This document shows, piece after piece, positions 26,732-56,854 of a stretch of DNA of 64,000 nt. The notes beneath the pieces were generated by a model, which saw only the letters and a list, made by a program, of their open reading frames with translations, made no database searches and was not told where the DNA came from. The position numbers were made by a program, and so were the translations under genes. This DNA comes from Clostridiales bacterium (GTDB lineage Bacteria > Bacillota > Clostridia > Lachnospirales > Lachnospiraceae), in contig DUNO01000019.1 in NCBI GenBank assembly GCA_012839295.1, positions 52,682 through 116,681 of the forward strand. Direction: 5' to 3'. The stretch's first letter is position 1; every line of letters begins with the position of its first letter.

Positions 26732-26771
26732 TATAAAATGCCTTGGGCATCAAGGGCCTTTTCATTGGTAA

Positions 26772-26921: not shown

Positions 26922-26937
26922 TGGCACGGCTTTTGCA
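26922..26937 (+). promoter_or_regulatory. Consensus sigma54 (-24/-12) site pointing antisense into nagA
   Basis: TGGCACG-GCTT-TTGCA matches TGGCACG-N4-TTGCW exactly; function untested. Confidence 0.35.
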
Positions 26938-26971
26938 ACGTCCCCCTCTATAACCGGCTTCAATTACTTCA

Positions 26972-28084: not shown

Positions 28085-28099
28085 AAAAGGTCTCCTTCC

Positions 28100-30262: not shown

Positions 30263-30539
30263 TGCTGTGTGATGCCTGCGGCTGCCTAAGGCGTGTCTGG
30301 AAACTCACTTGGCTCGGCACAGGCAGTTTTTAGCTACACCCTAAGCTTAGAATCTGATTAGATTCTATTGAAACCTATTGCAATTAAAAGCGGGGTGGCA
30401 TAAGATAATCCCATATAAATCTGACAATGATATAATATCGCCAGGTATTATATCGTGCGCCGGAGCAGAGCGGAGTGCGCAATCCTGGCACGAAGTGCCA
30501 TAGCATGTGGTTTGTACATGATATAATAGGAATGGAGAG

Positions 30540-30911
30540 ATGGGAATGGGATGTTTAGGCAATATGATATGGTTTCTGTGCGGAGGCCTGCTGAGCGGGC
30601 TTAGCTGGATACTGATGGGGATTTTATGGTGTATTACAATTGTTGGGATTCCGGTAGGTGCCCAGTGCTTCAAATTTGCAGAGCTTAGCTTTTTTCCTTT
30701 TGGGAAGGAAATCAGGTATGGCGGAGGAGCCGGATCCTTTTTGCTTAATGTAATCTGGATTCTGGTTACGGGTATTCCCCTGGCGATCGAGTCGGTTGTC
30801 CTGGGACTGATCCTGTGTGTAACAGTAATTGGCATACCCTTTGGCCTGCAGCATTTTAAGATAGCAAAGCTGGCTTTAATGCCTTTTGGCGCTACCATAG
30901 AAAGAATTTGA
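30540..30911 (+). CDS. YccF-domain membrane protein
   Basis: Two internal repeats CITIVGIPVGAQCFK / CVTVIGIPFGLQHFK; ends LMPFG. Confidence 0.88.
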   Translation: MGMGCLGNMIWFLCGGLLSGLSWILMGILWCITIVGIPVGAQCFKFAELSFFPFGKEIRYGGGAGSFLLNVIWILVTGIPLAIESVVLGLILCVTVIGIPFGLQHFKIAKLALMPFGATIERI

Positions 30912-30984
30912 CAGGATTATTGCACAGTTTCACTCAGAGTAGACAGTGCACTGGGTTATTGGAACAGGAAAGGTGTGAGTAAGG

Positions 30985-32109
30985 ATGGATCTAAATTTTT
31001 ATATGCCCACCAAGGTAATCATGGGAAGGGGCTGCATCACAAAACAGGCCGCATTGCTAAAGGAATACGGCACAAGGGCTCTTATTGTTACCGGGATGAA
31101 TTCAGCAAAAACAAATGGCTCCTTACAGGATGTAACGGAGGCCTTACAGGGCCAGGGGATAGCCTATGATTTATTTGACCGGGTCATGGCAAACCCTACG
31201 GTGGCCTGTGTCTATGAAGGAGCCGCTTATGCCAGGGAAAAGCAGTCGGATTTCATCATCGGAATCGGCGGCGGATCCCCGATGGATGCGGCGAAGGCGA
31301 TTGCCCTCCTTGCGGTACAGGATATCCCGGAGGAAGAGGTATTCCTGGGGAAATTTGCCCAGCAGGCCCTGCCCTTGGTCCTGGTTCCTACGACGGCCGG
31401 AACAGGCTCAGAGGTTACCCCCTATGCCATTTTAACCAATACTGCGGGGCAGACGAAGACAAGCATAGCATCCCCTGCGGCCTTTCCGAAGCTGGCACTG
31501 CTGGATGCCCAATATATGAAGGCTTTATCCATGGAGGTCACCATCAATACTGCCATAGATGCCCTCTCCCATGCAATCGAAGGAATGCTGTCCGTCAGGG
31601 CTACAAGGATAAGCGACAGTATCGCCCGGCAGAGTATACAGGCGATTGTACCAAGCCTGGTTACCCTGTCACCGGATTATAATAAGCCTGCCTCCGAAAT
31701 ACCGGCACAGGTCCGGGAAATGCTATTATATGGTTCCATGCTGGCAGGGGTTGTAATATCCCATACGGGCACGACGGCGGTACATTCCATGGGGTATTCC
31801 CTGACCTATTTTAAAAATATCGACCATGGGCGGGCGAACGGCCTTCTGCTGCCAAGCTTTTTAAGGTTTGTAATGAAAAAGGAAGCGGCTGTGGTAAACC
31901 AGATCCTGTCAGCGATGTCCTTTTCTTCCCTGGATGATTTGGAGGCGCTGTTCTTAAGGCTGTTAGGGGAAAGGGAGCGGATTACGGTACAGGATGTTGA
32001 AAAATATGCAGGAATTGCAATTAAGGCAAAGAACATAATGAATTCGAAGGTGGTACCGGAGAGGGAAGATTTAATCCGGATGTATGAAAGAAGCTTAAAT
32101 ATAGTATAA
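30985..32109 (+). CDS. Iron-containing alcohol dehydrogenase
   Basis: IGGGSPMDAAK; PTTAGTGSEVT; DALSHAIEG; HSMGY; HGRANG. Confidence 0.92.
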   Translation: MDLNFYMPTKVIMGRGCITKQAALLKEYGTRALIVTGMNSAKTNGSLQDVTEALQGQGIAYDLFDRVMANPTVACVYEGAAYAREKQSDFIIGIGGGSPMDAAKAIALLAVQDIPEEEVFLGKFAQQALPLVLVPTTAGTGSEVTPYAILTNTAGQTKTSIASPAAFPKLALLDAQYMKALSMEVTINTAIDALSHAIEGMLSVRATRISDSIARQSIQAIVPSLVTLSPDYNKPASEIPAQVREMLLYGSMLAGVVISHTGTTAVHSMGYSLTYFKNIDHGRANGLLLPSFLRFVMKKEAAVVNQILSAMSFSSLDDLEALFLRLLGERERITVQDVEKYAGIAIKAKNIMNSKVVPEREDLIRMYERSLNIV

Positions 32110-32143
32110 GGCTGCATAAGGTTGCAAAGATTGATAAATGATA

Positions 32144-32226
32144 TTGACAAATGGATAGTCCTGCTGTTATTATCATAGATAATGTGGGCAAAGGCGTTCC
32201 TGTAAGGAGACTTTGCCCATTTTTTT
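32144..32226 (+). promoter_or_regulatory. glnA promoter plus leader terminator with an ANTAR-like hairpin overlapping its 5' arm
   Basis: TTGACA (32144) and TG-T-TATTAT. Terminator TGGGCAAAG/CTTTGCCCA with T7. Alternative hairpin GGGC-AAAGGC-GTTC has A1/G4 in the loop. Confidence 0.6.
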
Positions 32227-32315
32227 AAGCAAAAAAGGTGTGGCTTAACTGCCATAATGGTTTGAAAGGGTGTTAGCAGCCCCGGTTCCAACAATATGAG
32301 TGAGGAGTGAACGAT

Positions 32316-33647
32316 ATGAAAAACTATACCAAGAAGGATATCATGAAGCTGGTGGAAGAAGACGACGTGGAATTTATCCGCCTGCAATTTACTGACATGT
32401 TTGGCAATCTGAAGAATGTAGCAATAACGACCAGCCAGTTGGAGAAGGCTTTAAATAATGAATGCATGTTTGACGGCTCCTCAATCGAAGGCTTTGTACG
32501 TATCGAGGAATCGGATATGTTCCTGTATCCGGACCTGGATACTTATGTAACCTTCCCCTGGAGACCCCAGCAGGGCAAGGTGGCGCGCCTTATCTGTGAT
32601 GTGTATGATACGGACAGGAAGCCCTTTGAAGGGGATCCGAGATACGCCTTGAAGAAAGTGCTTAAGGAAGCTGCCAGCATGGGCTATACCTTTGACGTGG
32701 GGCCGGAACTGGAATTCTTCCTGTTCCAGTTGGAGGAGAATGGTAACCCCACGACCATTACCCATGAAAGAGCCGGATATTTTGACCTGGGGCCTCTCGA
32801 TTTCGGGGAAAATGCAAGGAGGGATATGGTGCTCACCATGGAGGAGATGGGGTTAAAAATTGATGCTTCCCACCATGAGGTAGCGCCGGCCCAGCATGAA
32901 ATTGATATCAAGCACACGGATGCCCTGGCGGCTGCGGACAGCGTCATGACCTTTAAGCTGGTTGCCCGCACCATTGCGAAGCGCCATGGCCTGCATGCGA
33001 CCTTTATGCCGAAGCCAAACTATGGAGTGGACGGCTCGGGAATGCATATTAATATATCCTTGAAGAAGGATGGGAAAAATTTGTTTGATTGTCCTGAGGA
33101 TCCGTTGGGACTTAGCCGGGAGGCGTACCAGTTCATAGCGGGAATCATGAAGCACATGGAGAGTATGGCGGCCATTACGAATCCTATCGTGAATTCCTAT
33201 AAGAGGCTCGTTCCAAATTATGAAGCCCCGGTTTATATTGCCTGGTCAGCCTCCAATAGAAGTCCCCTGATCCGTATTCCCGCCGGAAGAGGCGAAGCAG
33301 CCAGGATCGAGCTGAGATGCCCGGATTCGGCAGCTAACCCTTACCTTGCCCTGGCGGTGTGCCTTGCCGCAGGCCTGGATGGCATTAAGAATAAGCTGAC
33401 GCCCCCTGACAGCGTGGACAGGAACCTTTTTGAGTTATCCCGGGAGGAAAGGGAAAGCCTCGGCGTTAGAAGACTTCCCTCCACCCTCTGTGAAGCGGTC
33501 GACGCGATGGAAAAGAGTGATTTTATCAAGGAAATCCTTGGCGGACATATCAGTGAAAAATACATCGAGGCAAAGCGTTCTGAATGGGCAGCATACCGGG
33601 ACCAGGTAACCCAATGGGAGATCGACCAATATCTCTACCGGATTTAG
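32316..33647 (+). CDS. glnA: Glutamine synthetase type I
   Basis: [10 protein letters not shown]; FDGSSIEGF; [12 protein letters not shown]; ATFMPKP; GSGMH; [11 protein letters not shown]; NRSPLIRIP; ELRCPD. Confidence 0.97.
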
Positions 33648-33698
33648 TCTGTTTCATCTCGAATCGATATTTTTTAAGGGGAAAAGAGGTGAACAGAT

Positions 33699-34247
33699 GT
33701 GTTTAGCATAATAGTAGGATTTCCGAGGACAGAAGATGCAAATAGTATTAAGAATGCCATAAGCAGAAATGGCTTTACGGTAAGTGAAGCCTGCACGACC
33801 GGAGCCCAAATTGTATCCCTGGCCAATGATTTGGATGAAGGTATCGTCGTATGCGGCTACCGGTTTCCTGACATGCACTATAGCGAACTGAATAATTATT
33901 TACCGAAGGGCTTTGAAATGCTTTTGATTGCTTCGCCGGAAAAGCTGGAGTTTCGCCAGAATAATAATATCGTCTGTTTACCCATGCCGATCAAGACCCA
34001 TGACCTGCTTAACACACTGCAGATGATGTCCTACCAATACCAAAGGAGAAAGAAAAAGGAGAAGGAGAAGCCAAGGCAGCGGAGCGAGGAAGAGAAGGCT
34101 GTGATCCAAAAGGCTAAGCATGTGCTGATGGAGAGGAATAATATGACGGAGGAGGAGGCGCACCGCTATTTGCAGAAAACGAGTATGGATAGTGGGACCA
34201 ATCTTGTGGAAATGGCGGAGATGGTGTTAAAGATGTATTATATGTAG
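33699..34247 (+). CDS. ANTAR-domain RNA-binding antiterminator (NitR-like)
   Basis: GTG start; degenerate receiver-like N-terminus; C-terminal IQKAKHVLMERNNMTEEEAHRYLQKTSMD; directly downstream of glnA as in clostridial glnA-nitR loci. Confidence 0.88.
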   Translation: MFSIIVGFPRTEDANSIKNAISRNGFTVSEACTTGAQIVSLANDLDEGIVVCGYRFPDMHYSELNNYLPKGFEMLLIASPEKLEFRQNNNIVCLPMPIKTHDLLNTLQMMSYQYQRRKKKEKEKPRQRSEEEKAVIQKAKHVLMERNNMTEEEAHRYLQKTSMDSGTNLVEMAEMVLKMYYM

Positions 34248-38491: not shown

Positions 38492-40579
38492 ATGGAGAAT
38501 GATAATAAAACCAGCTTTTGGAAGGGCATTAGGGATAGGCTTTATACGGCTTGGAACAGGGATGTTAATGTTAATATGAATAACTTCTTTGGCTCTATGT
38601 TTTATCTGATTGTTTCCATTATGTATCTGGAAATAATTTTTCATGTCCTAATTTATCACAATGTTAATATAAAGATTATTTATCCAGTCCTATTTGCAGT
38701 TCCCTTTGGAATGGTGGTCAATTTTATCATTGGGCTATTTCCACCCAAGGTGAATAAGGCCTTGCTCTGGTGTATTATGGCTGCCATCACCCTGGTATTC
38801 TGTGTCCAGCTGGTTTACTATTCCATATTTAAGGTGTTTTTTTCCTTCCAGTCCGTAGGCCTTGCCGGAGATGCGTTTACAAATTTTGAGAAGGAGATCT
38901 TTGTTGCCCTGAAGGCGAACCTGGGAGGGATCATTTTATTATTGCTGCCATTCCTGCTGGGGCTCCTTGTGAACCAGCAAATTGACTTTTCACAGAGGGG
39001 CATAAAGGAACAGCTTGCCCTGGTGGCTACGGCCATCATCAGCCATGCAGTTGCGGTAGTAGCATTAATGGCCTTCGGCCGGGGGGATTATTCGCCCTAT
39101 GATTTATATTACCAGTCAAAGGTACCGGATCTGTGCGGCAAACAGCTGGGCGTCGTGACCATGACAAGGCTTGATATGGAAAAGCTTTTATTTGACCAGG
39201 AGGACCTGGTGCTGGCTGTGGAGCCGGGCAAGGCGCCGGATAAGAAGCCCCCCAGCACCCAGACTACCGGGGGAAAGAGGAAGGCGGCGGCAAAGACGCC
39301 CATCACCACTACGGAAGCGCCCACACCTACCCCTGTGGTGGAAGAGCCGAATGTCATGAGTATTGATTTTGAAGCACTTGCAAAGAATGAGTCAAATAAG
39401 ACCATTAAAAAGCTCCACCAGTATTTCGCTTCCGTCACACCGACCAATAAAAATAGATATACAGGCATGTTCAAGGGCTATAACCTGATCCTGATCACGG
39501 CAGAGGGTTTCTCCCCTTATGCCATAGATAAGGAGAAAACACCGACCTTATATAAAATGGTCAGGGAAGGCTTTGTCTTTAAGAATTTCTACACCGCCCT
39601 ATGGCAGACATCAACCAGTGACGGGGAGTATGTGGCATTAACGGGCCTGATACCCACTGGCACACGGAGCATGTACAAGGGCAGGAATAATCTATGGCCC
39701 TTTGCCCTTGGCCGCCAGTTTGATGCCCTTGGGGTGGCAAGCAAGGCCTACCATAACCACACCTACACCTATTACCAGCGGGATAAGACCCACCCGAACC
39801 TGGGATATATTTATAAGGGTCTGGGAAACGGGCTTAAGCTTAAGACAAAATCCTGGCCTGAATCAGACCTGGAAATGATGCAATCCACGGTGGACGACTA
39901 TATCGGGGAAGGCCAGTTCCATGCCTATTATATGACCGTCAGCGGACATATGAATTATACCTTTACGGGAAACAGTATGTCATCGAAAAATAGAAGCCTT
40001 GTGAAGGACCTTCCCTATTCAGAGGATGCCAAGGCCTATATTGCCTGCCAGGTGGAGTTGGACCGGGCATTGGAATATCTGATTAAGAGGCTGGAGGAAG
40101 CAGGGGTGGCAGACCGTACGGTCATCGCCCTCAGTGCGGATCATTATCCCTATGGCTGGGAGAAGGATAGGCTGGATGAATTGGCGGGACATGAGATTGA
40201 CCCGAACTTTGAGATTTATAAGAATCATTTTATCCTATGGAATCCGGGGATGACGAGGAATATCGTCGTTGATAAACCCTGCTCCAGTATGGATATTCTT
40301 CCCACCCTGTCCAACCTTTTCGGGTTGACCTATGATTCCAGGCTGCTCATGGGGCAGGATATCCTGTCGGATTCAGATCCCCTGGTATACCTCTCCAACA
40401 GGAGCTTCATTACGGATAAGGTTATGTATAATTCGGAGAACGGGAAAGCAATCTACCTGACGGATGAACCCGTATCGGAGGATTATATTGACAATATCAA
40501 TAATATGATTAAAAATAAATTTACAGTATCACAAAGTATTTTGGAAAATGATTATTACCGGTATGTATTTCCGGAGTAA
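38492..40579 (+). CDS. LTA synthase family protein (TM domain plus alkaline-phosphatase/sulfatase domain)
   Basis: Five N-terminal TM helices, Pro/Thr-rich linker, LILITAEG, TSTSDGEY (catalytic Thr), TVSGH, SADHYPYG, DILPTL. Confidence 0.88.
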   Translation: MENDNKTSFWKGIRDRLYTAWNRDVNVNMNNFFGSMFYLIVSIMYLEIIFHVLIYHNVNIKIIYPVLFAVPFGMVVNFIIGLFPPKVNKALLWCIMAAITLVFCVQLVYYSIFKVFFSFQSVGLAGDAFTNFEKEIFVALKANLGGIILLLLPFLLGLLVNQQIDFSQRGIKEQLALVATAIISHAVAVVALMAFGRGDYSPYDLYYQSKVPDLCGKQLGVVTMTRLDMEKLLFDQEDLVLAVEPGKAPDKKPPSTQTTGGKRKAAAKTPITTTEAPTPTPVVEEPNVMSIDFEALAKNESNKTIKKLHQYFASVTPTNKNRYTGMFKGYNLILITAEGFSPYAIDKEKTPTLYKMVREGFVFKNFYTALWQTSTSDGEYVALTGLIPTGTRSMYKGRNNLWPFALGRQFDALGVASKAYHNHTYTYYQRDKTHPNLGYIYKGLGNGLKLKTKSWPESDLEMMQSTVDDYIGEGQFHAYYMTVSGHMNYTFTGNSMSSKNRSLVKDLPYSEDAKAYIACQVELDRALEYLIKRLEEAGVADRTVIALSADHYPYGWEKDRLDELAGHEIDPNFEIYKNHFILWNPGMTRNIVVDKPCSSMDILPTLSNLFGLTYDSRLLMGQDILSDSDPLVYLSNRSFITDKVMYNSENGKAIYLTDEPVSEDYIDNINNMIKNKFTVSQSILENDYYRYVFPE

Positions 40580-40721
40580 AGTCCTCTTAATAGGCTGGGA
40601 GTAAAACCCTCTTATAGACTGGGGGAAAACTCTCCTATAGACTGGGGGGAAAACTCCCAATAGACCGGGAGTAAAACCTTCCTATGGATCAGGAAGAGAA
40701 CCCTCCTATGGATCAGGAGGG
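40573..40721 (+). repeat. Six degenerate 23-24-bp tandem units, each forming a short hairpin
   Basis: Units such as GGGAGTAAAACCCTCTTATAGACT, GGGGGAAAACTCTCCTATAGACT, GGGAGTAAAACCTTCCTATGGATC, AGGAAGAGAACCCTCCTATGGATC. Confidence 0.8.
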
Positions 40722-43845: not shown

Positions 43846-43899
43846 GCGGAATAATTGGATATCAGGAAATACAGTGAAAGAAAAGGTAAAAGAGTCAGA

Positions 43900-44110
43900 T
43901 AAGAAAAGTTAGTTAAGAAAAGTCAGCAAATAAAAAAGTTAACTAAGGAAAGCCCACAAGAAAAGTTGACTAAGAAAAGCTGACCAAGAAAAGTTAACTA
44001 AGAAAAGCCGACTAAGAAAAGCCGACTAAGAAAAGCTAATTAAGAAAAGCTAATTAAGAAAAGCTAATTAGGAAAAGTAAAGTAGGAAAAATTGAGTAAA
44101 AAAAGCGGAT
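43900..44110 (+). repeat. About 15 tandem copies of a 14-bp unit (TAAGAAAAGYYRAY)
   Basis: For example TAAGAAAAGCCGAC x2 (43999-44026) and TAAGAAAAGCTAAT x3 (44027-44068), degenerate at both ends. Confidence 0.88.
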
Positions 44111-44488: not shown

Positions 44489-44589
44489 CAGGAGGAGAAA
44501 GCTTCTAAAGAGCAGGAGGAGAAATCCTCCAAGAACAGGAGGAGAAATCCTCCAAGAACAGGAGGAGAAATCCTCCAAGAACAGGAGGA
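44489..44589 (+). repeat. 23-bp tandem repeat CAGGAGGAGAAATCCTCCAAGAA ending in the gatA RBS
   Basis: Degenerate copy at 44489, exact copies at 44513, 44536 and 44559, partial copy at 44582. Confidence 0.9.
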
Positions 44590-47544: not shown

Positions 47545-47583
47545 AAGATGTCGCCAGGAGCTGGAAAAAGGAAAGTGTGTGAA

Positions 47584-47789
47584 GGCTGTTGCATTTAGGT
47601 TATTAAGAGGAAGGAAGGGCTGGCAGCTCACCACACACGCTGTTTGACCGACGCATAGCCGGTTTTGTATGTCATAATCGGACATAGGAATGTCCGCCCC
47701 TGTCATACAAAACCGGCTATGCGTCGGTCAAACAGCGCATTTTGGTGAGCTGCCGGCCCTTCCTTTGGGTAGGTTTTGGGGCAACAGCC
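47584..47789. repeat. ~206-bp palindromic element (MITE/REP-like or structured RNA), copy 1
   Basis: Ends GGCTGTTG...CAACAGCC; 155-nt hairpin at 47611-47765 with a perfect 34-bp inner arm; second copy at 56515-56725. Confidence 0.85.
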
Positions 47790-47854
47790 AGCGTTAGGTG
47801 TGGATTACCTTCGGGGGACTTTGAGTGAAATTTGAGGGAATGGGGGCTATTATG

Positions 47855-48247
47855 TTATGGGATGGACGTTGGTAATTGTTTTATTTTTGATTCTATGGTT
47901 TTTATGATTTTGATGAATTCTTTGTCGGTTTTGCCGGTTGGGTCTTCAAGGCCCCAATCTTCACGGTGCTGGCAGGGTAGGCTTGGGCATGCTACATTGC
48001 AGCCCATTGTAATGACAATATCTACGGGCGGGATGTCGGACAGCAGCTTTGGATGCTGTGTTTTTTCCATGTCAATGCCATAGAGGTCTTTTATAAGCCG
48101 TACAGCGTCTTGGTTGATTTGGGGCTTTGTTTCTGTTCCGGCGGAATAGCACTCTAGTATATCTCCCGCAAAATGCTTGCAGAGGGCTTCTGCAATTTGG
48201 GAACGGCAGGAATTGTGTACACATATAAATGCAACCTTTTTTTTCAC
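47855..48247 (-). CDS. arsC: Arsenate reductase, thioredoxin-coupled (LMW-PTP fold)
   Basis: FICVHNSCRSQIAE; SAGT; ITMGC..ACP; DWGLEDP. Confidence 0.9.
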   Translation of the reverse strand: MKKKVAFICVHNSCRSQIAEALCKHFAGDILECYSAGTETKPQINQDAVRLIKDLYGIDMEKTQHPKLLSDIPPVDIVITMGCNVACPSLPCQHREDWGLEDPTGKTDKEFIKIIKTIESKIKQLPTSIP

Positions 48248-48316
48248 GATGGTTTACCTCCTTTTCTGGATAAGGCTAACTTTTGGTAGATAGGGCTATG
48301 CTGCTTTTTTATATGG

Positions 48317-49372
48317 CTAATCTGCGCGGGGAAACCAGTTCCTGGTATTGTTCGCAAGCTTAACGAGTATCAGCATAACAGGTACTTCGGTGAGGACTCC
48401 CACGATGGTAGACAATGCTACCGGCGATTGTGCGCCGAACAGGGCGATGGCAACCGCAACGGCAAGTTCAAAGAAGTTTGACGCGCCGATCATTCCGGCT
48501 GGGGCGGCGATATTGTGCGGCAATTTCAGGATCCTGCTTGCTAAATATGCGATGAAAAAAATAAGGAATGTCTGGATAATCAGCGGCACGGCAATCAAGA
48601 CGATATGCAGCGGGTTTTCCAGAATAACATTACCCTGGAAGGAGAAAATGATAACCAGCGTCAGAAGCAGTCCGACAACGGTGATGTTGTTCCATTTTGG
48701 CAGGAAGGTGTTATTGAAATAGTCCTCTCCCTTTCGCCTGATTAACTGTGCCCGCGTAATGATACCCGCCGCAAGAGGTATGACGACGAACAGCACTACA
48801 GATAAGAGAAGTGTATCCCACGGTATGGAAACACCGCCTATGCCGAGCAGGAATGCGACAATCGGAGTAAAGGCCACGAGGATAATTAAATCGTTGGTAG
48901 CAACCTGTACCACCGTGTAAGCGGGGTCTCCTTTTGTTAAGTGGCTCCACACGAATACCATTGCCGTACAGGGGGCGGCTCCAAGCAAGATGGCGCCAGC
49001 CAAATAATCTTTTGCCAGGTCCGCAGGGATTAGGGACTTAAATACCACAAAGAAAAACAGGCCTGCAATGGCGGACATCGTAAAAGGCTTAACCAGCCAA
49101 TTTGTTACCCACGTTACAAACAATCCTTTCGGATTCTTTCCCACATTTTTTATGCTCTTGAAATCCACCTTCAGCATCATGGGGAAAATCATAAGCCAAA
49201 TTAAAATAGCAATGGGGATAGATACCTGGGCGTATTCAAAACGCCCTAAAAAGGTGGGGATAACAGGTAAAAACTTGCCAATCAGAATACCCGCCGCCAT
49301 ACAGAGCAGCACCCACACCGTTAAATACTTTTCAAAAAATCCAATCCCTTGATTTTGCTTATTGGTTTCCAC
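48317..49372 (-). CDS. acr3: Acr3-family arsenite efflux permease
   Basis: GTG start after AAGGAG; FFEKYLTVWV; LIWLMIFPMMLK; NWLVKPF; GAAPCTAMVFVW; SNFFELAVAVAI; EVPVML. Confidence 0.93.
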   Translation of the reverse strand: METNKQNQGIGFFEKYLTVWVLLCMAAGILIGKFLPVIPTFLGRFEYAQVSIPIAILIWLMIFPMMLKVDFKSIKNVGKNPKGLFVTWVTNWLVKPFTMSAIAGLFFFVVFKSLIPADLAKDYLAGAILLGAAPCTAMVFVWSHLTKGDPAYTVVQVATNDLIILVAFTPIVAFLLGIGGVSIPWDTLLLSVVLFVVIPLAAGIITRAQLIRRKGEDYFNNTFLPKWNNITVVGLLLTLVIIFSFQGNVILENPLHIVLIAVPLIIQTFLIFFIAYLASRILKLPHNIAAPAGMIGASNFFELAVAVAIALFGAQSPVALSTIVGVLTEVPVMLILVKLANNTRNWFPRAD

Positions 49373-49685
49373 AATTACACACTCCTTCTTTGCAAATGCA
49401 ATCTTCTTTGTCAATAGTGATAGCGCATAAGAAGTTTTTGAAATCCTGCACCTTTTCGCTGTTCAGCGAGTAGTACATCCACTTGCCCTCTTTGCGCCCG
49501 CACACCAAACCACAATCACAGAGGATTTTCATGTGATGGGATAGGGTGGGCTGGGTAATGTTGAACTTCTCTAAAAGCTTACAGGCACAAAGCTCACCGC
49601 AGGATAGTATATCTACAATCATAAGCCTGTTTGTATCTGAAAGTGCTTTGAATAACCCGACGTTTTCAGTGTATTTGTCATTCAT
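49359..49685 (-). CDS. arsR: ArsR-family repressor
   Basis: FKALSDTNRLMI; GELCACKL; ITQPTLSHHMKIL; RKEGKWMYY; C-terminal Cys residues. Confidence 0.92.
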   Translation of the reverse strand: MNDKYTENVGLFKALSDTNRLMIVDILSCGELCACKLLEKFNITQPTLSHHMKILCDCGLVCGRKEGKWMYYSLNSEKVQDFKNFLCAITIDKEDCICKEGVCNCGNQ

Positions 49686-49699
49686 CTTTGAATCACCTC

Positions 49700-49719
49700 A
49701 CATAGATATTTATCTATGT
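49700..49719. promoter_or_regulatory. Probable ArsR operator
   Basis: Perfect inverted repeat ACATAGATA-TT-TATCTATGT just upstream of arsR. Confidence 0.6.
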
Positions 49720-49778
49720 ATTATTATATGCCATATATAGATAGATGTCAATATGTTGTGAAATTTATGCAGGGCAGC

Positions 49779-49834
49779 TTTCAGACATGCCCTAGTATTT
49801 GATTGGGTTTCAGACATGCCCTTGTATTTGATTG
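49779..49834 (+). repeat. Two tandem copies of a 27-bp sequence (29-bp period)
   Basis: TTTCAGACATGCCCTAGTATTTGATTG and TTTCAGACATGCCCTTGTATTTGATTG. Confidence 0.8.
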
Positions 49835-49911
49835 TTGTATCCTTGGAGGAATTCAGTTATAATAAAGGGAGAGAGAAATTTTGCCATCATACGCATAATG
49901 GAGGGGTTATA

Positions 49912-50268
49912 ATGGATGAGAGAAGACGGGCGAAAAGAATGCCGATTACTTTGTCGCTGGAAATTCTGAATTTGTATAAGCAGGATAATGTTCAGGTGAG
50001 TAATCTGCATGCACCGATTGAAATTGTGAATATTTCGAAATCGGGAATTGGGTTTGTGTCGGAAAGTGTCCTTCCGGTCGGGTATTATTTTAATGCTAAT
50101 TTAAATCTTGGGAACAGCGAGGATACCCTGCATTGCGTAGTTAAGATTGTCCGCAGCCAGGTTATGGAGGATAAGAGGACCTTGTATGGCTGTGAGTTTG
50201 TAGGGATGGCGGATATATTATCCTTTGTATTTGATAATTATGATGAGACGATTAAGGATGAACAATAA
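49912..50268 (+). CDS. Stand-alone PilZ-domain (c-di-GMP-binding) protein
   Basis: ERRRAKR (RxxxR) and NISKSG (D/NxSxxG) motifs; YGCEF. Confidence 0.85.
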   Translation: MDERRRAKRMPITLSLEILNLYKQDNVQVSNLHAPIEIVNISKSGIGFVSESVLPVGYYFNANLNLGNSEDTLHCVVKIVRSQVMEDKRTLYGCEFVGMADILSFVFDNYDETIKDEQ

Positions 50269-50281
50269 TGTATAATTCATG

Positions 50282-50314
50282 ACAGGTGGATCAGGGGGCT
50301 GGTTCACCTGTTTT
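50282..50314 (+). terminator. Terminator after the PilZ gene
   Basis: ACAGGTGGATC / GGTTCACCTGT stem followed by TTT. Confidence 0.55.
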
Positions 50315-50492
50315 ATATGGTTTCGGAAGAAGTGTGGTCTTTGAAAGGATCACACTTTTTTGTGCTTTCCAGCTGTAGTTTATTGGGAGAATGTCACAAA
50401 GATTTCATAGAGTAATCACAATTCACACACAGAATTTACACAAAGTCTATTTAGTATTATTTGGTAAGGATATTTAGAAAAGGAGACGAGAT

Positions 50493-52364
50493 ATGCAAAA
50501 AAAGATAGCTTATTTGCTATGTATGGCGTTACTGGCTGCCATAGGATTGGCTCCGGCGGCAGAAGCTAAGGCTTCAGCGGCGGGCCGCGCATCAGAAGTA
50601 ATTAAGGCAATCGGTGTTATGGAAACCGACCAGGGCAGCACTTCATCAGGGACTGACATAGTGACCCGGTCCATGTTTGCCCAAATGTTAATTAATTTAT
50701 CAACCTTGAAGGATAATGCTTCCAGTGAAAGCAATGTGACCTTGTTTAAGGATGTTAAAAAGACCTATTGGGCATCCGGCTATATCCAGACGGCGGTGGC
50801 CCAGGGCTGGATGAGCGGATATCTGGACGGAACCTTCAAGCCCACCCAGGGCATTAAGCTCCAGGAGGCGGTATATGGGGTTTTAAAGCTGTTGGGGTAT
50901 GCTGACAGTGATTTTAGCGGCAGCAAGATCAGCGCTATCATGAAGCTATACGGGGCAAAGGGGCTGGATACGAATATCAGTAAGGGAACAGCGGATGTCC
51001 TGACAGTGGAGGATTGCGTTAATTTATTCTATAATACCTTAAATGCAACGAATAAGACAGGTACCGTATACGCTTCCGTATTAGGATATACCTTGGAGGC
51101 CAACGGGGGCATCAGCTACCTGTCCCTGATTAATAAAGGGATAAAGGGGCCTGTTATCGCTACCGGCGCCTGGTCTTCCCAGATACCTTTTACTGTATCG
51201 ACGGCTAATATTTATAAAGATGGGGTGGCTTGCTCCTATTCTAACATTGATTCCTATGACGTGATCTATTATTCGCCCAGCTTCAGGACAATCTGGGTAT
51301 ATGATGACAGGGTGACAGGTTCCATTTCCTCCATAAATCCTAATTATACCTCTCCGACCTCGGTTACCCTGGGCGGTACGGAATATACCTTTGCGGATAC
51401 GGAGGTAGCCTTAAGGTTCTCGGCAATGGGAGATGTGAAGAAGGGGGATGTTGTAACCCTGCTGCTTGGACAGGACGGAACCGTAGTTGGTGTATTATCC
51501 ATTGATGAATACAATGTTACGGTGGTTGGTTGTGTCCTTGACACCGGAACCCATCTTATTGAGGATGAAAATGGCGATTACAAGAATACGGATTATGTAA
51601 CCTTTGTGGATGCTTCGGGTAACGAATACACCCAGGATTATAATCCCGATCTTATGTATCTGGCACAGGGAAGCCTGGTGCAGATGAAATTTGTGGATGG
51701 TTTGGCCAGCATAAGCAGTTATATTATGTCAACGCCGGCCTTTTCAAACTTTATCTTCAGCAGTGACGGACTTTCCCTAGGAAACAGGGCATTGGCATCA
51801 GACGTTAGGATTTTGGATTTAAAAAATGGCACCCATATCAGTGTGGGACCTGAGCGTCTGGCAGGCTCCGCAATCAGCCCCTCCTCCATCCTGTATTATT
51901 CCTTAAATAGCGGCGGGCAGATATCGGAGTTGATATTGAAGGATGTGACCGGAGACCTTGATTCCTACGGTATTTACACAGGTATTACATATTCCAGTTC
52001 CGGTACAATGGGCTACAAGTATATTATAGACGGCAAATCACAAACCTTGGACACGGATTCCTTAAGCTACTTGAACCTGACAGAGGGGCCGACGGGCTTT
52101 GTTATTTACGACGGCATTGTCTCATCAAGCTATGCCTTGACTGGGGTCCAGGTGTCCTCCATCGGTACAAATACAGTTCTTTCCGGCAGCACAAAGTATA
52201 CCTTGGCGGATAATTATAGCGTTTATCTATATTTGGACGGAGAATATATTGCCACAACATTTGATAAGGTTAAAAATCTTTCAAAGTATACGGTAATGGC
52301 GTATTATGACAAGACAATCGCAACTGGCGGAAGAGTGCGGGTAATCATTGCGGGCAGTAAATAG
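50493..52364 (+). CDS. Secreted S-layer-homology (SLH) domain protein
   Basis: Signal peptide; VTRSMFAQML; FKDVKKTYWASGYIQTAVAQGWMSGYLDGTFKP; beta-rich Tyr/Ser/Thr C-terminal region. Confidence 0.85.
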   Translation: MQKKIAYLLCMALLAAIGLAPAAEAKASAAGRASEVIKAIGVMETDQGSTSSGTDIVTRSMFAQMLINLSTLKDNASSESNVTLFKDVKKTYWASGYIQTAVAQGWMSGYLDGTFKPTQGIKLQEAVYGVLKLLGYADSDFSGSKISAIMKLYGAKGLDTNISKGTADVLTVEDCVNLFYNTLNATNKTGTVYASVLGYTLEANGGISYLSLINKGIKGPVIATGAWSSQIPFTVSTANIYKDGVACSYSNIDSYDVIYYSPSFRTIWVYDDRVTGSISSINPNYTSPTSVTLGGTEYTFADTEVALRFSAMGDVKKGDVVTLLLGQDGTVVGVLSIDEYNVTVVGCVLDTGTHLIEDENGDYKNTDYVTFVDASGNEYTQDYNPDLMYLAQGSLVQMKFVDGLASISSYIMSTPAFSNFIFSSDGLSLGNRALASDVRILDLKNGTHISVGPERLAGSAISPSSILYYSLNSGGQISELILKDVTGDLDSYGIYTGITYSSSGTMGYKYIIDGKSQTLDTDSLSYLNLTEGPTGFVIYDGIVSSSYALTGVQVSSIGTNTVLSGSTKYTLADNYSVYLYLDGEYIATTFDKVKNLSKYTVMAYYDKTIATGGRVRVIIAGSK

Positions 52365-52424
52365 ATATGAGATACCCTGACTTATTGCGGGTTCGAGTGG
52401 CAATGGACTAGGGTTAGGTTGTGA

Positions 52425-52547
52425 GGTGAATCTGAGTGTAGCTATATCCATCTGGGCGCAGACCGGGCCTCCCATGCTTGCCTGCACTTGGCAAGCATGG
52501 GAGGTTAAAGGCAAGCCCAGGTGGATATAGCTACACTCAGATTCACC
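52425..52547. repeat. 123-bp nested inverted repeat, unrelated in sequence to the 47.6/56.5-kb element
   Basis: 33-bp outer arms GGTGAATCTGAGTGTAGCTATATCCATCTGGGC / GCCCAGGTGGATATAGCTACACTCAGATTCACC (one G-T); 15-bp inner arms CCTCCCATGCTTGCC / GGCAAGCATGGGAGG. Confidence 0.85.
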
Positions 52548-52746
52548 GCGTTAGTATTATGGAAGAAGCCGCTTATCGGTAGGATGCTTTTGTATACCGT
52601 GATGGAGTGGAATATTAGCATTATGAAGAGACCCTTTTGTTGGGTAAATCTTATATGGGTAATTGCGGAATGGTGTAGATAGCGAGAATAGCAGCAGTTT
52701 ATGGGTCTCGCAGTTACCTGCCTAATTTATTATGATGGAGGTAGGA

Positions 52747-54555
52747 ATGAAGAAGTATTCCAAGGTGTTGAGAAGGTTGATTAAGGTGGGAATCATACTT
52801 GCCATATTGGTTGTCGCCGGTGTGATTGGCTTTAAGGTATGGGTAGTCCCCAGGTTGTCAGTGAAAGCCGGTAGTGAGGCGGTTGTTACTACGGCAAATG
52901 CGGAGATTAGGGATATAAAGAATGTACTGTCTTCTTCAGGTACAATACAGCCGTTGGCCAGCTATGATGTAACAACCCTGGTATCGGGAGAAATTATTGC
53001 AGCAGATTTTGAAGAAGGGGATATTGTGCAGGAAGGCCAGGTATTGTACCAGATTGCAACGGATAACCTGGATTCTGATATTGGGAATGCTGAGACAACC
53101 GTAAGCAGGGCAAAAAAAGAGTATACGAAGGCGGAAAAGAGCTATCAGGAGGCGCTGGATAAATATGGAGAAGCGCAGGAGGACTATAAGAAGGCTGTAG
53201 CAGAATACAGTGATGTCAATGTCCTTTCTACGGATACCGGCATAGTTACCAAGGTTTATGTGAAGGCTGGGGACACAATTCAGGCGGGCAGCCAGCTTGC
53301 TGATGTGTATGATAATAGCATCATGGTGCTGACCGTACCCTTCAGTTCGTCCGAGGTAAACTCTTCCCTGGTCGGGAGGACGGCTGAAGTGACAATTGAT
53401 GAAGCCTTTGAGTCCATAAAAGGAAAGGTGACAAAGGTCAGCAATATAGAAAAATCATTATCGGGCAACCGTGTTGTGAAGGAGGTAACGATTGAGGTTG
53501 CGAACCCGGGAGGGATTACGGATTCGACAACGGCCAGCGCAAGCATCGGAAGTATTTACAGTATGGACGCCGGCAGCTTTGCGGTAAAGACAAATACGAC
53601 GATTACCTCGGATTTGTCCGGTGAAATCGCATTCCTGAATATTGAGGAGGGCGATAGTATCAGTGAAGGTGATGTGGTTCTTGTAATCAGCAAGGATTCC
53701 GTGGAGGATAAATTAAAATCTTATCTGGATGCCATGGATTCTGCCCAGGATGGGATTGATAATGCGAAGGATTCCTTAGAGAGCAGGCAGGAAGCTATTG
53801 AGGATGCAGAGTCTTCCCTTCAGGATATCATTGATACCAGGACGGATTATAGTATAACATCCCCGGTTACCGGTAAGGTGATTAAAAAGAACGCGCTGAA
53901 GGGGGATACGGTCAGCAGCAATAATGGCGGCAGCTCCTCCTTATGCACGATTTATGACCTGTCCTGTGTAACCTTTGATATGTATGTGGATGAGCTGGAT
54001 GTCATGAAGGTGGAGGAAGGCCAGGAGGTAAATATCACGGCAGATGCCTTAGAGGGTGCTGAGATCAGCGGGATTGTGACAAATATAAGTCTGGAAAGTA
54101 CCACAAGCCAGGGGGTAACACAGTATCCGGTCACCGTGAGGATTGATGATGTAGGGAACCTGTTGCCGGGCATGAATGTGACCGGTGAGATTGTGATAGA
54201 AAAGGCGGAGGGCGTGCTGGCGGTTCCCAGTGATGCATTACAGCGGGGAGACATGGTATACGTAAAGGACAGCTCCGTAACGGAAGCACAGGGAGATATT
54301 CCTGCCGGCTTTAAGGCAGTCCAGGTTACAACAGGTATTACCGATGGTGATTATATTGAGGTTCAGGGCGGCTTATCGGAAGGTGATGAGGTCTATGTTA
54401 AGAGGACGGCGGCAAGCACGAATCCTAATATGATGCAGTTTGATATAATAGGCGGAAGACCTTCCGGAGGTGGTGGAATGCCTTCTGGAGGTAGTGGACG
54501 GTCCGGCTCTGGAAGCGGCGGAAGGCAAACTGGAGGCGGGTTCCCAGCAAACTAG
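52747..54555 (+). CDS. HlyD/MacA(YknX)-like membrane-fusion adaptor protein
   Basis: One N-terminal TM helix; lipoyl-like motifs (GDIVQEGQVL, ITSPVTGKV); coiled coil; VDELDV..VEEGQEV; LLPGMNV; Gly-rich tail. Confidence 0.85.
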   Translation: MKKYSKVLRRLIKVGIILAILVVAGVIGFKVWVVPRLSVKAGSEAVVTTANAEIRDIKNVLSSSGTIQPLASYDVTTLVSGEIIAADFEEGDIVQEGQVLYQIATDNLDSDIGNAETTVSRAKKEYTKAEKSYQEALDKYGEAQEDYKKAVAEYSDVNVLSTDTGIVTKVYVKAGDTIQAGSQLADVYDNSIMVLTVPFSSSEVNSSLVGRTAEVTIDEAFESIKGKVTKVSNIEKSLSGNRVVKEVTIEVANPGGITDSTTASASIGSIYSMDAGSFAVKTNTTITSDLSGEIAFLNIEEGDSISEGDVVLVISKDSVEDKLKSYLDAMDSAQDGIDNAKDSLESRQEAIEDAESSLQDIIDTRTDYSITSPVTGKVIKKNALKGDTVSSNNGGSSSLCTIYDLSCVTFDMYVDELDVMKVEEGQEVNITADALEGAEISGIVTNISLESTTSQGVTQYPVTVRIDDVGNLLPGMNVTGEIVIEKAEGVLAVPSDALQRGDMVYVKDSSVTEAQGDIPAGFKAVQVTTGITDGDYIEVQGGLSEGDEVYVKRTAASTNPNMMQFDIIGGRPSGGGGMPSGGSGRSGSGSGGRQTGGGFPAN

Positions 54556-54567
54556 GAGGAGTAGGCT

Positions 54568-55317
54568 ATGAATTTGAAGAGAAGAAACCAGGTTGAAAGG
54601 GAATATACCGGCCCCCTGATCCAGCTGAAGGACATTCATAAGGTTTATTATATGGGAAGCTCCGAGATCTATGCTAATCACGGGATTAACCTGGAGATCA
54701 ACCAGGGGGAGTTTGTCGCCATCATAGGAAAGTCCGGCAGCGGCAAATCTACTATTATGAATATCATAGGAGCCCTCGATGTTCCAACCTCAGGCCAATA
54801 TATCCTTAAGGGGAAGGACGTCAGTAAAATGAATGATAATGAGCTGGCAGTCATCAGGAATAAGATGATCGGATTCATTTTCCAGCAGTATAACCTGCTC
54901 CCTAAGGAACGTCTGATTAATAATGTTGCCCTGCCCCTGCTTTATTCCGGAATGGGGAAGGAGGAGCGCCATAAAAGGGCGATGGAGGCTTTGGAAAAGG
55001 TGGATATTGCGGATAAATACAGAAATTTCCCAAACCAGCTGTCGGGCGGGCAGCAGCAAAGAGGCGCTGTTGCCAGGGCCTTGGTCACCAATCCGTCCCT
55101 GATCCTGGCAGATGAGCCGACAGGGGCATTGGACTCGAAAACGAGTGTGGAGCTTTTAAAATTTTTAAAGCAGCTGAATGAAGAAGGGAATACGATTGTG
55201 CTGATTACCCATGACCGTTCGGTGGCGGAAGAGGCGAACAGGATCGTAAGCCTGCAGGATGGCAGGATAATCTTTGATGGAACTGTTGATGAATATAGGA
55301 AGCAGGTAGCGGGATGA
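54568..55317 (+). CDS. MacB/YknY-like ABC transporter ATP-binding protein
   Basis: GKSGSGKST; IGFIFQQYNLL; LSGGQQQR; ILADEPTGALDS; ITHD. Confidence 0.93.
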   Translation: MNLKRRNQVEREYTGPLIQLKDIHKVYYMGSSEIYANHGINLEINQGEFVAIIGKSGSGKSTIMNIIGALDVPTSGQYILKGKDVSKMNDNELAVIRNKMIGFIFQQYNLLPKERLINNVALPLLYSGMGKEERHKRAMEALEKVDIADKYRNFPNQLSGGQQQRGAVARALVTNPSLILADEPTGALDSKTSVELLKFLKQLNEEGNTIVLITHDRSVAEEANRIVSLQDGRIIFDGTVDEYRKQVAG

Positions 55318-56486
55318 AATTAGGTCAGGCATTTAAATTAGCCTGGCAGTGTATCTTAGGAAGCAAAATGCGTTCCTTCCTTACAATGCTGGGCATGATC
55401 ATTGGCGTCGGTTCAGTAATAACCCTGCTTGGCTTAATGCAGGGGGTTACGAACTATTTGATTGATACTTTTTCCGAAATGGGAACAAATAATATCTCTG
55501 TAACGGTAAAAAATACGGATACCCGTGTTGTTGATGTGGATGATGTTTACGAATTTACCAAGGAAAACAGTGCAGTCTTTACAGGGGTTACACCCTCGGT
55601 GGCCTCCAGTTATACTGTTAAAAATGGCAGCAGCTCCCTGTCAACAACAGTGACCGGGGTAGGAGAGGATTATCTGGATTTGAACAGCATCGACCTGGAC
55701 TGGGGACGGTCTGTTTCCTATGCGGACATTAAAAACCGGTATAATGCATGTGTACTTGGAAGCTACCTGGTGGAGGAATTATATGATGGTAAAATCAGCG
55801 CCGGGGATACCATAAGGATTGATGGACAGGTATTTACGGTGGCCGGTGTACTAAAGGAGCAGGATGATTCAACGGAGGGCTCCACGGACGATTGCATCTA
55901 TATTCCCTATTCTGTTGCATGCCGTCTGGCAGGCAGTACGAATATCTCCAGCTATACCTTTGTGGTAAAGGATGCGGATTTGGTGACTGCAGGGGAGACT
56001 CTTTTGGATAATTATCTTTATGATATTATGAAAAGCGAGGATCTTTACAATGTCAGAAGCATGACAGAGCTTTTGAATACAATTAATTCCATGACTACCC
56101 TGATGTCTGCCATTCTTGGCGGAATCGCAGGAATCTCCCTGCTGGTAGCGGGTATTGGTATTATGAATATCATGCTGGTGTCGGTGGTGGAAAGGACGAA
56201 GGAGATTGGTATCCGTAAATCGCTGGGGGCGAAACGGAGGGATATTATGTGGCAGTTTGTTATTGAGGCGGCTTCCATCAGTATGCTGGGCGGTTTTGTC
56301 GGGGTGGTTATTGGATATGTGGCGACTGTTACCCTTGGAAATATGTTTGGGGTTGAGGCGGCTCCTACCACGAATTCGATCCTGCTGGCATTTGGGGTGT
56401 CTGCGGCGATTGGGATTGGGTTTGGGTATGCTCCGGCGAATAAGGCGGCGGGGTTGAATCCGATTGATGCGTTGAGGAGTGAGTAG
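55314..56486 (+). CDS. MacB/FtsX(YknZ)-like ABC transporter permease
   Basis: RSFLTMLGMIIGV; SLLVAGIGIMNIMLVSVVERTKEIGIRKSLGA; PANKAAGLNPIDALR. Confidence 0.93.
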   Translation: MKLGQAFKLAWQCILGSKMRSFLTMLGMIIGVGSVITLLGLMQGVTNYLIDTFSEMGTNNISVTVKNTDTRVVDVDDVYEFTKENSAVFTGVTPSVASSYTVKNGSSSLSTTVTGVGEDYLDLNSIDLDWGRSVSYADIKNRYNACVLGSYLVEELYDGKISAGDTIRIDGQVFTVAGVLKEQDDSTEGSTDDCIYIPYSVACRLAGSTNISSYTFVVKDADLVTAGETLLDNYLYDIMKSEDLYNVRSMTELLNTINSMTTLMSAILGGIAGISLLVAGIGIMNIMLVSVVERTKEIGIRKSLGAKRRDIMWQFVIEAASISMLGGFVGVVIGYVATVTLGNMFGVEAAPTTNSILLAFGVSAAIGIGFGYAPANKAAGLNPIDALRSE

Positions 56487-56514
56487 GGGGGATGGATGAA
56501 TTGTAGATAGTGAG

Positions 56515-56725
56515 GGCTGTTGTATGTAGGTTGTGAAGGGGAAGGAAGGGCTGCTTGCTCACCACACACGCAGGTTGACAGACACATAGCCGGTTTTGTA
56601 TGCCATGATCGGACACAGGGATGTCCGCCCATTGTCATACAAAACCGGCTATGCGTCTGTCAAACAGCGCATTAAGGTGAGCAAGCAGCCCTTCCTTCCC
56701 TTGGTGTAGGTTGTGGACAACAGCC
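56515..56725. repeat. ~211-bp palindromic element, copy 2
   Basis: Same GGCTGTTG...CAACAGCC ends and core CATAGCCGGTTTTGTATG / CATACAAAACCGGCTATG as copy 1; hairpin at 56539-56700. Confidence 0.85.
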
Positions 56726-56854
56726 TGGTTTAGGTCGTGGACGGATTGGCTTTTTGGGAAAGTTTTTCTTCACAAGGCGAATTAGTACTATCTTGCCTTT
56801 ATCCATTTTACGATGTCTGAGAGCGGCGCATCATCGACGTGGGCTCCAGTTGAT

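Follow-up and report, generated by a model that had tools for sequence, protein, structure and literature searches.

Two long palindromes in a stretch of 64,000 nucleotides from a Lachnospiraceae genome (the window, meaning the whole of this stretch) are best read as old, diverged, low-copy members of a wider and undescribed superfamily of repeats. Each is a nested, non-coding palindrome of ~230 bp, and the superfamily consists of oriented repeats that are bracketed by the motif TAGGTT(G/T)TG and belong to the same kind as repetitive extragenic palindromes (REPs), bacterial interspersed mosaic elements (BIMEs) and miniature inverted-repeat transposable elements (MITEs). We put the probability of this reading at roughly 0.55. 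The two palindromes, A (47584–47789) and B (56515–56725), each lie in the spacer between convergent genes: A between gatB (plus strand, stop at 47544) and an arsC-like phosphatase gene (minus strand, stop at 47855), and B between a gene for a MacB/FtsX-type permease (plus strand, stop at 56486) and a DUF1648 gene (minus strand, stop at 56855). A third palindrome in the window is labelled C, and two more beyond its end are labelled D and E. The DNA that was read comprises ~82 kb of this genome (the window and 18 kb past its ends) and ~100 kb of its relatives.

The original prediction of two ~210-bp palindromes at these positions holds; both are present, and they align at 85–86% identity across ~225 nt. 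Homology slightly exceeds the terminal repeats, giving whole units at roughly 47579–47803 for A and 56510–56740 for B (both plus strand). As RNA, the plus strand of A folds at −148.3 kcal/mol (z −15.8) and that of B at −138.6 kcal/mol (z −13.6), and none of the shuffled sequences folded as well as either; the minus strand of A folds at −142 kcal/mol and A as DNA at −88.6 kcal/mol, and both strands of the element fold equally well. The terminal inverted repeats that had been reported are there, with a length of 9 bp rather than 8 (GGCTGTTGC at 47584–47592 and GCAACAGCC at 47781–47789 in A; GGCTGTTGT at 56515–56523 and ACAACAGCC at 56717–56725 in B), and a difference between A and B inside this repeat is itself compensated. 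Inward of the outer repeat comes an internal loop, both sides of which carry TAGGTT on one strand, then an outer stem of 24 bp, a bubble that is asymmetric (ACACA versus CATTTT) and a 100-nt inner hairpin with the apex CGGACAT-AGGA-ATGTCCG; the direct TAGGTT motifs on both sides of the main stem and the three-tier stem with its CGGACA/TGTCCG apex had thus been seen correctly. In A, the main hairpin spans 47609–47767, with an outer stem that pairs 47611–47633 with 47743–47765 and an inner hairpin at 47638–47737. In B, the main hairpin spans 56539–56700, the outer stem pairs 56539–56563 with 56676–56700 (25 bp, 100% complementary) and the inner hairpin occupies 56569–56669. A small conserved open reading frame was rejected as an explanation, the sole reading frame in A (36 codons) being frame-shifted in B. 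The palindromes occur in two Joint Genome Institute (JGI) assemblies and in Logan contigs of two runs, with orthologs in ENA and NCBI assemblies, and since these are independent assemblies the palindromes are not artefacts of assembly.

The link between A and B and other palindromes is made by the flank motif, here termed M. In A, it reads TAGGTTATTA at 47596–47605, with same-strand copies at 47770–47779 (TAGGTTTTGG) and 47791–47799 (GCGTTAGGT), so that a third TAGGT stands just beyond the right terminal repeat. In B, it reads TAGGTTGTGA at 56527–56536, with same-strand copies at 56707–56716 (TAGGTTGTGG), 56731–56740 (TAGGTCGTGG) and 56504–56513 (TAGATAGTGA). The exact 10-mer TAGGTTGTGA is found just twice in the 64 kb, where it marks the left feet of B and C. 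Element C (52409–52562, plus strand) carries this motif at 52415–52424, followed by a 123-nt hairpin at 52425–52547 (−106 kcal/mol, z −13.2) that has arms of 33 bp and, at 52468–52504, an inner hairpin of 15 bp. Its right flank, GCGTTAGTATTATGG at 52548–52562, resembles the AGCGTTAGGT(A/G)TG found after the outer repeat of A and of the elements in two sister species (L024 and L033), and GCGTTAG is common to all of these right flanks.

Beyond the window, element D is a near-perfect hairpin of 173 nt, ~4 kb past the end and 22 nt after the gltD stop (L039:3203–3375, L039 being the same-genome sequence past the window end, where 10 kb was read). In the orientation of the window, D reads ATTTAGGTTGTG before the hairpin, CCCGCAGGAAGAGGGGCTGGGG...TCGGGACA-GATGGAAG-TGTCCGCCC... 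within it and ATATAGGTTTATG after it. With A and B it shares the flanking motif M, left and right, as well as the AGGAAG..GGGCTGG foot and the CGG(G)ACA...TGTCCGCCC apex; the middles of its arms are unrelated to A and B, yet complementary to each other. Element E is a small hairpin ~7 kb past the window, in the spacer between a PFL gene and its activase gene (L039: ~305–365; GCTGTTGC/GCAACAGCC, then TGCATTA). It carries the outer-repeat sequence alone, with the 11-mer AGGCTGTTGCA in common with A and a 17/19 match to TTGCAACAGCCTGCGTTA of L033, and is a candidate for the bare 'shell', an empty A/B outer repeat, into which the main hairpin is nested.

Across the 200 nt flanking the hairpins of A to D, TAGGT occurs seven times against 0.1 expected, each time on one and the same strand, the complement being absent, and the excess stands without A or without B, two elements that are not independent of each other. 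All four begin 10–60 nt after the stop codon of a plus-strand gene, and all four share one orientation, on the strand with uniformly positive GC skew. It had been stated that no target-site duplication was evident; direct copies of TAGGTT(G/T)TG do, however, bracket the main hairpin in the manner of a duplication (11/11 identical in B). Other palindromes are bracketed by this motif as well, which makes it either a specific target or a piece of the element itself.

Copy number separates the members of this family. Copies of A and B were counted by aligning all contigs of a run to A and to each outer arm, at a likeness of at least 80%. In the run that holds the organism at ~119x depth (X1), A and B are the only copies at this level, and the same is true of a second run, which holds a strain 99.3% identical. 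For C, 230 contig pieces were recruited in run X1, and their summed depth is ~5,100–6,800 over the arms and 21,000–33,800 over the inner hairpin, compared with 117–119 over single-copy flanks; as rough sums of assembler depths over contig fragments, these figures correspond to ~45–55 copies with C-like arms and ~180–280 with the inner hairpin, in the order of 100 per genome. The high copy number of C is similar in the second strain, and a relative from a sludge metagenome holds several copies. C-like copies are also where many contigs break off. The consensus next to these copies is ...GGTTTAGGCTGTGA on the left of the hairpin and GCGTTAGTTTTTAG... on its right, and because the adjoining consensus retains them, the flank motifs belong to the C repeat. 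The commonest variants of C are mirrored on its two arms (52477 C>A with 52495 G>T).

Searches farther afield brought no additional members. The inner-arm 18-mer CATAGCCGGTTTTGTATG, scanned as an exact match, was found 6 times in 185,579 species genomes and 13 times in JGI metagenomes, and by blastn all of these proved to be single-arm chance matches; the probe is too specific, since the orthologs differ in exactly this patch. Among viral contigs, the right-end motif gave four chance matches and the consensus of the inner hairpin of C none, and a blastn search ('distant') of plasmids and phages with A and C gave no match. Covariance models of the outer module (R1) and of the inner hairpin (R2) found no extra copies in 194 kb of the window and relatives, nor did R1 in 42 kb of extended flanks; both models miss D and E. 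A match to a described RNA family had been named as a check on the original prediction, and the window has none at the gathering thresholds of Rfam 15, which includes 6S RNA, retron msr and the OMEGA/HEARO RNAs. In E-value mode, only generic microRNA-hairpin models appeared, far below threshold (62.7 versus 190 bits).

The sites of A and C are empty in sister species. In four relatives (L024, L026, L027 and L028), gatB is directly followed by a PilZ gene and the A site is unoccupied, while the window holds element A together with an arsC-ACR3-arsR operon on the minus strand, which replace the upstream part of the gatB–PilZ spacer; homology with the relatives restarts at the PilZ promoter, at ~49850, and the extra DNA amounts to ~2.3 kb including the ars operon. 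C lies in the spacer between the SLH and HlyD genes, which measures 368 bp here compared with 45–49 bp in L024 and L026, a ~325-bp insertion. With 85.5% identity to B and ~81% to the orthologs, A is nearer to B and therefore arose within this lineage or was imported from near it. That A hitch-hiked with the ars operon from elsewhere is unsupported: the closest ACR3 operon (93%), the one homolog examined, has an ordinary terminator and no element. The same ACR3 homolog (93% identity) stands in a conjugative-element context. The operon itself occupies 47855–49849 of the minus strand and is absent from the gatB–PilZ spacer of the four relatives, and the spacer between arsR and PilZ contains a 29-nt tandem duplication (49779–49834).

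The mirrored differences between the arms of A and B are real. Of the two that had been pointed out, GGCAGCTC/GAGCTGCC versus GCTTGCTC/GAGCAAGC is a 3-bp patch altered on both arms, and GACCGAC/GTCGGTC versus GACAGAC/GTCTGTC could be traced to its origin through the sister species and the second strain: an ancestral C·T mismatch was fixed on the right arm in A and on the left arm in B. Since the divergence of the two strains (~0.7%), A and B have each acquired one further pair-restoring change, and B also one pair-breaking change beside the apical loop. A larger alignment, which had been proposed as a check, was made from A, B, the second strain's A, L026 and L033, and its covariation is significant. 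The consensus fold has 81 pairs, with standard pairs in 97% of cells, and 17 of the 81 are changed on both sides, compared with 6.8±1.7 in column shuffles (0/500 as high); a control in which partners were slid by 1–3 columns gave at most two double-sided pairs.

These changes are unevenly distributed. Of the 24 pairs of helix 3 (the outer stem), 10 have changed on both sides, and nine of those 10 clump in one patch of 12 pairs (P ~0.012). Three of the four covarying pairs of the inner stem fall in a single 4-pair patch, which reads GCCGG, GCAGA or GGGGA depending on the species. By comparison, 25 of the 33 pairs of helix 4 (the inner stem) are invariant, as are the unpaired motifs and the outer repeat, where eight of the nine pairs of helix 1 do not vary and one is compensated. 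The non-Watson–Crick cells comprise five G·U and seven A·C, so strand bias is absent; pairing is clearly maintained, yet no RNA strand is singled out. Template switching between the arms of a palindrome during replication yields mirrored changes in just such a patch-wise manner (PMC8794818), and a hairpin that needs to fold in transcripts from both directions would likewise permit only Watson–Crick pairs.

The gene order gatCAB-PilZ-SLH-HlyD-ABC-FtsX is common to the contigs that encode the nearest homologs of GatB and FtsX, and in three sister species B occupies one and the same site, directly after the FtsX stop. L026 (FtsX 91% amino acid identity; element at L026:11190–11412) and L033 (90%; L033:2456–2686) carry full-length elements that are 79–81% identical to A and B. 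L024 (90%) carries a short form of 106 nt (L024:17903–18008), in which the outer repeat, TAGGTT and the outer stem are kept and closed by a 14-nt loop, ACACAGCGTATTAA; what is absent is exactly the inner hairpin, here 97 nt, with the junction ACACA/CGC...AAACA/GCG. As the FtsX gene tree nests L024 among the bearers of the long form, the short form is secondary and reflects a precise deletion. The more distant L027 and L028 have ordinary hairpin-plus-T terminators at the B site and no element, and the remaining FtsX homologs (P0124–P0130) belong to an out-clade with ordinary terminators. The four FtsX genes are 81–83% identical as DNA and 39–45% identical at fourfold-degenerate sites, which are therefore saturated, whereas the element is 79–86% identical across these species and the surrounding spacer DNA cannot be aligned; ACACA/CATTT and TAAT, as unpaired motifs and asymmetric bulges, are conserved with it. 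It follows that B is an old element, passed on vertically, whose sequence is under constraint beyond what its structure demands.

In the second strain, otherwise 99.3% identical, 18 nt (TGGATGAATTGTAGATAG) are tandemly duplicated a short way upstream of B (56492 in the window), and nine substitutions and two deletions fall in ~50 nt just downstream of it (56742–56790), so that changes are locally concentrated beside the element. What gene lies downstream of the element differs among all four species, and the element therefore marks a synteny breakpoint. In L033, the element is directly followed by a tandem array (L033:2690–2900) of about three ~47-nt units, in which TTAGGAGGTT and GGTAGTG abound.

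Several of these observations weigh against membership in a dispersed repeat family. The two copies of the A/B type at 80% identity or above are few for a repeat, and the copy numbers of C are rough. The hairpins of A and B are unrelated to that of C, and the proposed kinship with C rests on flank motifs of 7–11 nt. Those motifs are direct on both sides, 3–7 nt from the foot, whereas the GTAG tags of hairpin-forming REP doublets (REPINs) are inverted. A came with or beside a 2.3-kb ars operon and C sits in a ~325-bp insertion; neither is an insertion of element size, so there is no clean pair of filled and empty sites and no demonstrable target duplication, and a difference that matches the element precisely is confined to L024, which has lost the inner hairpin. 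No gene for a transposase, a REP-associated tyrosine transposase (RAYT) or a recombinase was found in the 82 kb of this genome; the window genes that were scanned (about half by Pfam and most others via synteny annotation, with some, at ~12.7–21.4 kb, unannotated) and the 18 kb beyond the window likewise revealed no transposase, integrase or reverse transcriptase. The cross-species conservation of B, including its asymmetric bulges, fits a host function better than it fits selfish DNA. The assignment to MITE-like or REP-like elements in the original prediction therefore stands in part: the end motifs are common to C, with its ~100 copies, and to D, which also shares foot and apex, and the sites of A and C are empty in sisters; set against this are the scarcity of A/B-type copies, the failure to find a transposase in the 82 kb and the two new sites, neither of which is a clean insertion.

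Three other explanations have to be weighed against this assignment. It is possible, if doubtful, that A and B are a structured RNA of the host, either a cis-acting module of the 3′ untranslated region (UTR) or a small RNA of ~200 nt, which was segmentally duplicated or recombined and is kept by selection on its fold, the likeness of the other palindromes being convergent or incidental. Retention at an orthologous site in four species at 79–86% identity while synonymous sites are saturated, significant covariation, conserved unpaired motifs and asymmetric bulges, the uniform orientation of every copy just after a stop codon and spacers free of any other terminator are all what such an RNA would leave. 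It would not explain why G·U and A·C cells are unbiased and why the strands fold equally well, nor why the flank motifs recur in a repeat of ~100 copies; there is no match to an Rfam family, just generic long-hairpin microRNA models below threshold, and a near-perfect duplex of ~100 bp is atypical of functional bacterial RNAs and should be cleaved by RNase III. The proposal of a structured RNA whose fold is under selection is thus supported in part, by covariation and by conservation far above neutral at the orthologous site, but pairing is Watson–Crick on both strands without wobble bias, and template switching between arms can mirror changes (PMC8794818).

Equally concerned with mobility, but unlikely, is the view that A and B are classical MITEs derived from an insertion sequence (IS) and moved in trans by a DDE transposase, with TAGGTT(G/T)TG as a ~9-bp target-site duplication and the GGCTGTTGC ends being, or mimicking, the inverted repeats of the parent IS. 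In its favour, the main hairpin of A, B and D has direct repeats adjoining its inverted foot (with 11/11 identity in B), the elements are without coding capacity, a related subfamily is multi-copy, and GGCTGTTGCA may resemble the ends of the IS6 family (GGnnCTGTTGCAAA), a likeness of just 8–9 nt. Target duplications would, however, differ from site to site, and the same motif recurs at every site, with a third copy outside the outer repeat and 3–7 extra bases between the right-hand copy and the foot; the pairs of direct repeats are degenerate in the orthologs, the elements are palindromic along their whole length and not at the termini alone, and neither a parent IS nor a transposase was seen in the 82 kb read. 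It is more improbable still that these are functionless palindromes maintained by mutation alone, through template switching, and intergenic merely because they are tolerated there. The mechanism is a published one (PMC8794818), the mirrored changes are patch-wise, recent single changes in A and in B repaired mismatches, and the inner palindrome was lost precisely in L024. Template switching homogenises arms but cannot hold a sequence constant between species, and 25 of the 33 pairs of helix 4, the unpaired motifs and the terminal repeats are invariant where the spacer is unalignable and fourfold sites are saturated; this pattern of conservation argues against a functionless origin.

If A and B do belong to a TAGGTT-bracketed superfamily, a working model can be proposed. 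The elements would spread, or would have spread in the past, by a strand-specific mechanism that recognises the TAGGTT motif and the hairpin foot, probably acting on single-stranded DNA like that of REP/RAYT or IS200/IS605-type elements. Insertion may sometimes take place in the loop of a pre-existing small hairpin, giving rise to nested palindromes. Complementarity of the arms would then be kept by inter-arm template switching in replication together with selection for the hairpin, and resident copies may be retained as transcribed hairpin barriers or insulators (or stabilisers) at the 3′ ends of neighbouring and often convergent units. A role as insulator for both converging units would need a fold on either strand, which fits pairing that is confined to Watson–Crick pairs. 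In its boldest and unlikely form, the proposal is that the hairpins bracketed by TAGGTT represent hairpin transposons of a new, strand-specific class in Firmicutes, which target their own motif, also where it is exposed in the loop of a hairpin already in place, so that palindromes come to be nested, with copies such as B domesticated as ~100-bp double-stranded RNA modules at the 3′ ends of operons and under purifying selection over genus-wide divergence.

Compared with known systems, the family lacks what defines REPs and REPINs, classical MITEs, attC sites, intrinsic terminators and the families of Rfam, and it is therefore filed under none of them, while resembling them in its apparent working. 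A REP is an imperfect palindrome of 20–40 bp, and a REPIN consists of two inverted REPs that form a hairpin of ~70–110 nt with GTAG (or CGTC) tags. The likeness to REP, BIME and REPIN–RAYT systems is broad: these too are extragenic palindromic repeats with many copies (as applies at least to subfamily C), with a conserved TAG-containing tag beside the hairpin foot and hairpins of the REPIN type, situated after genes and between convergent genes, mosaic or nested, and persisting vertically at fixed sites over long periods. REPs are known to be inserted within 'target palindromes', and the GTAG repeats surveyed came from Proteobacteria, Cyanobacteria, Chloroflexi and the Planctomycetes–Verrucomicrobia–Chlamydiae (PVC) group, with Firmicutes unmentioned (PMC3733652). 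The arms of REPs and REPINs measure 10–20 bp, however, compared with 33–100 bp here (~100 bp in three tiers in A and B, 33 bp plus an inner hairpin in C, and a 173-nt hairpin in D). Their tens to hundreds of copies find a parallel in the ~45–280 C-like copies (by summed depth), but not in the A/B type with its two copies at 80% or above and a diverged D. REP systems also have a cognate RAYT, a Y1 HUH transposase (TnpA-REP) encoded by a single-copy gene that the repeats flank, and no such gene was found in the 82 kb read.

ERIC/IRU sequences, the Correia elements of Neisseria and the pneumococcal BOX and RUP repeats are long, palindromic, MITE-like repeats that are transcribed as RNA hairpins and can alter mRNA stability or termination. 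The present elements are likewise 100–200-bp non-coding sequences that fold over nearly their full length, lie between genes or in 3′ UTRs and show mirrored differences between copies. Those families generally make duplications of a short, defined kind, such as TA, and number tens to hundreds of copies that are nearly identical, whereas here the direct motif is long and specific, A and B are low-copy and highly diverged, and there is no match in Rfam, plasmids or phages. Palindrome-associated transposable elements (PATEs) of the IS200/IS605 type share with the family strand-asymmetric ends, a short conserved sequence 5′ of the hairpin and no need for terminal inverted repeats, and their uniform orientation on one replication arm compares with the 4/4 elements on the strand of positive GC skew; PATEs have two separate subterminal hairpins and a target of 4–5 nt, compared with one large central palindrome here, and neither TnpA nor TnpB was seen in the 82 kb read. 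The target duplications of an IS-derived MITE have a fixed length and vary in sequence by site, while the same motif stands everywhere here, 3–7 nt off the right foot, and the filled and empty sites of such a MITE differ by the exact element, which is not so at A (~2.3 kb) or at C (~325 bp).

Hairpins shaped by template switching (quasipalindrome correction) have multi-nucleotide patches on both arms, mismatches resolved toward either arm and precise deletion of the palindrome, all of which are seen here. Precise deletion and patch correction by template switching are documented (PMC8794818, PMC5941160), and the process both creates and maintains hairpins (PMC8794818). It is, however, a mutational process and not a class of element, and it leaves the conservation between species and the shared flank motifs unexplained. 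Intrinsic terminators were rejected: neither spacer contains a terminator-like site or any other ordinary terminator, and the tails after the stems read TTTGGGTAGG and CTTGGTGTAGG. An attC site is an imperfect palindrome of 57–141 bp with the inverse core RYYYAAC and the core GTTRRRY at opposite ends, and it lies in a cassette array. GTTAGGT to the right of A, L024 and L033 fits GTTRRRY, but there is no inverse core on the left, no cassette array and no integrase, and attC was rejected. So were 6S RNA and retron msd, the window having no Rfam match at the gathering thresholds. The only runs labelled 'RNA-Seq' that contain the locus were also rejected as evidence for RNA, as they are metagenomic, with contigs of 18–23 kb that are evenly deep, and are therefore effectively DNA.

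REP, BIME, REPIN, ERIC and Correia repeats are well studied in Proteobacteria for their part in mRNA stability, termination and rearrangement and for their use in strain typing; a limited search of the literature found no REP-like or MITE-like family of the present kind described for Lachnospiraceae, Clostridia or Firmicutes. Tags that flank the hairpin left and right on one strand point to a chemistry of mobilisation unlike that of REPIN/RAYT. B, kept at an orthologous site while its arms co-evolve patch by patch, offers a natural test bed in which selection for a hairpin can be compared with template-switch mutation, and if B does work at the 3′ end of the macB-like operon, it would be a repeat domesticated as an insulator of gene expression in Clostridia. 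A practical warning also follows, in that such repeats interrupt assemblies, with many contigs ending in C and one within A, and mimic the covariation of RNA.

The window belongs to a 475-kb contig from a biogas-fermenter metagenome, and by its GatB and FtsX homologs the uncultured organism has its nearest kin among Lachnospiraceae close to Anaerotaenia, Mobilitalea and Herbinix. Three tandem arrays lie upstream of A. One, at 40573–40709 between a sulfatase-like gene and an Mbeg1-like gene, consists of five to six units of 23–24 nt (GGAGTAAAACCCTCCTATAGACTG), each with a GGAG...CTCC mini-hairpin. Another, in the asnS–gatC spacer at 43893–44090, has 10–14 units of 14 nt (AAAAGCTGACTAAG), and the third, in the gatC–gatA spacer at 44489–44589, has 4.3 units of 23 nt (CAGGAGGAGAAATCCTCCAAGAA) with a small hairpin in each unit.

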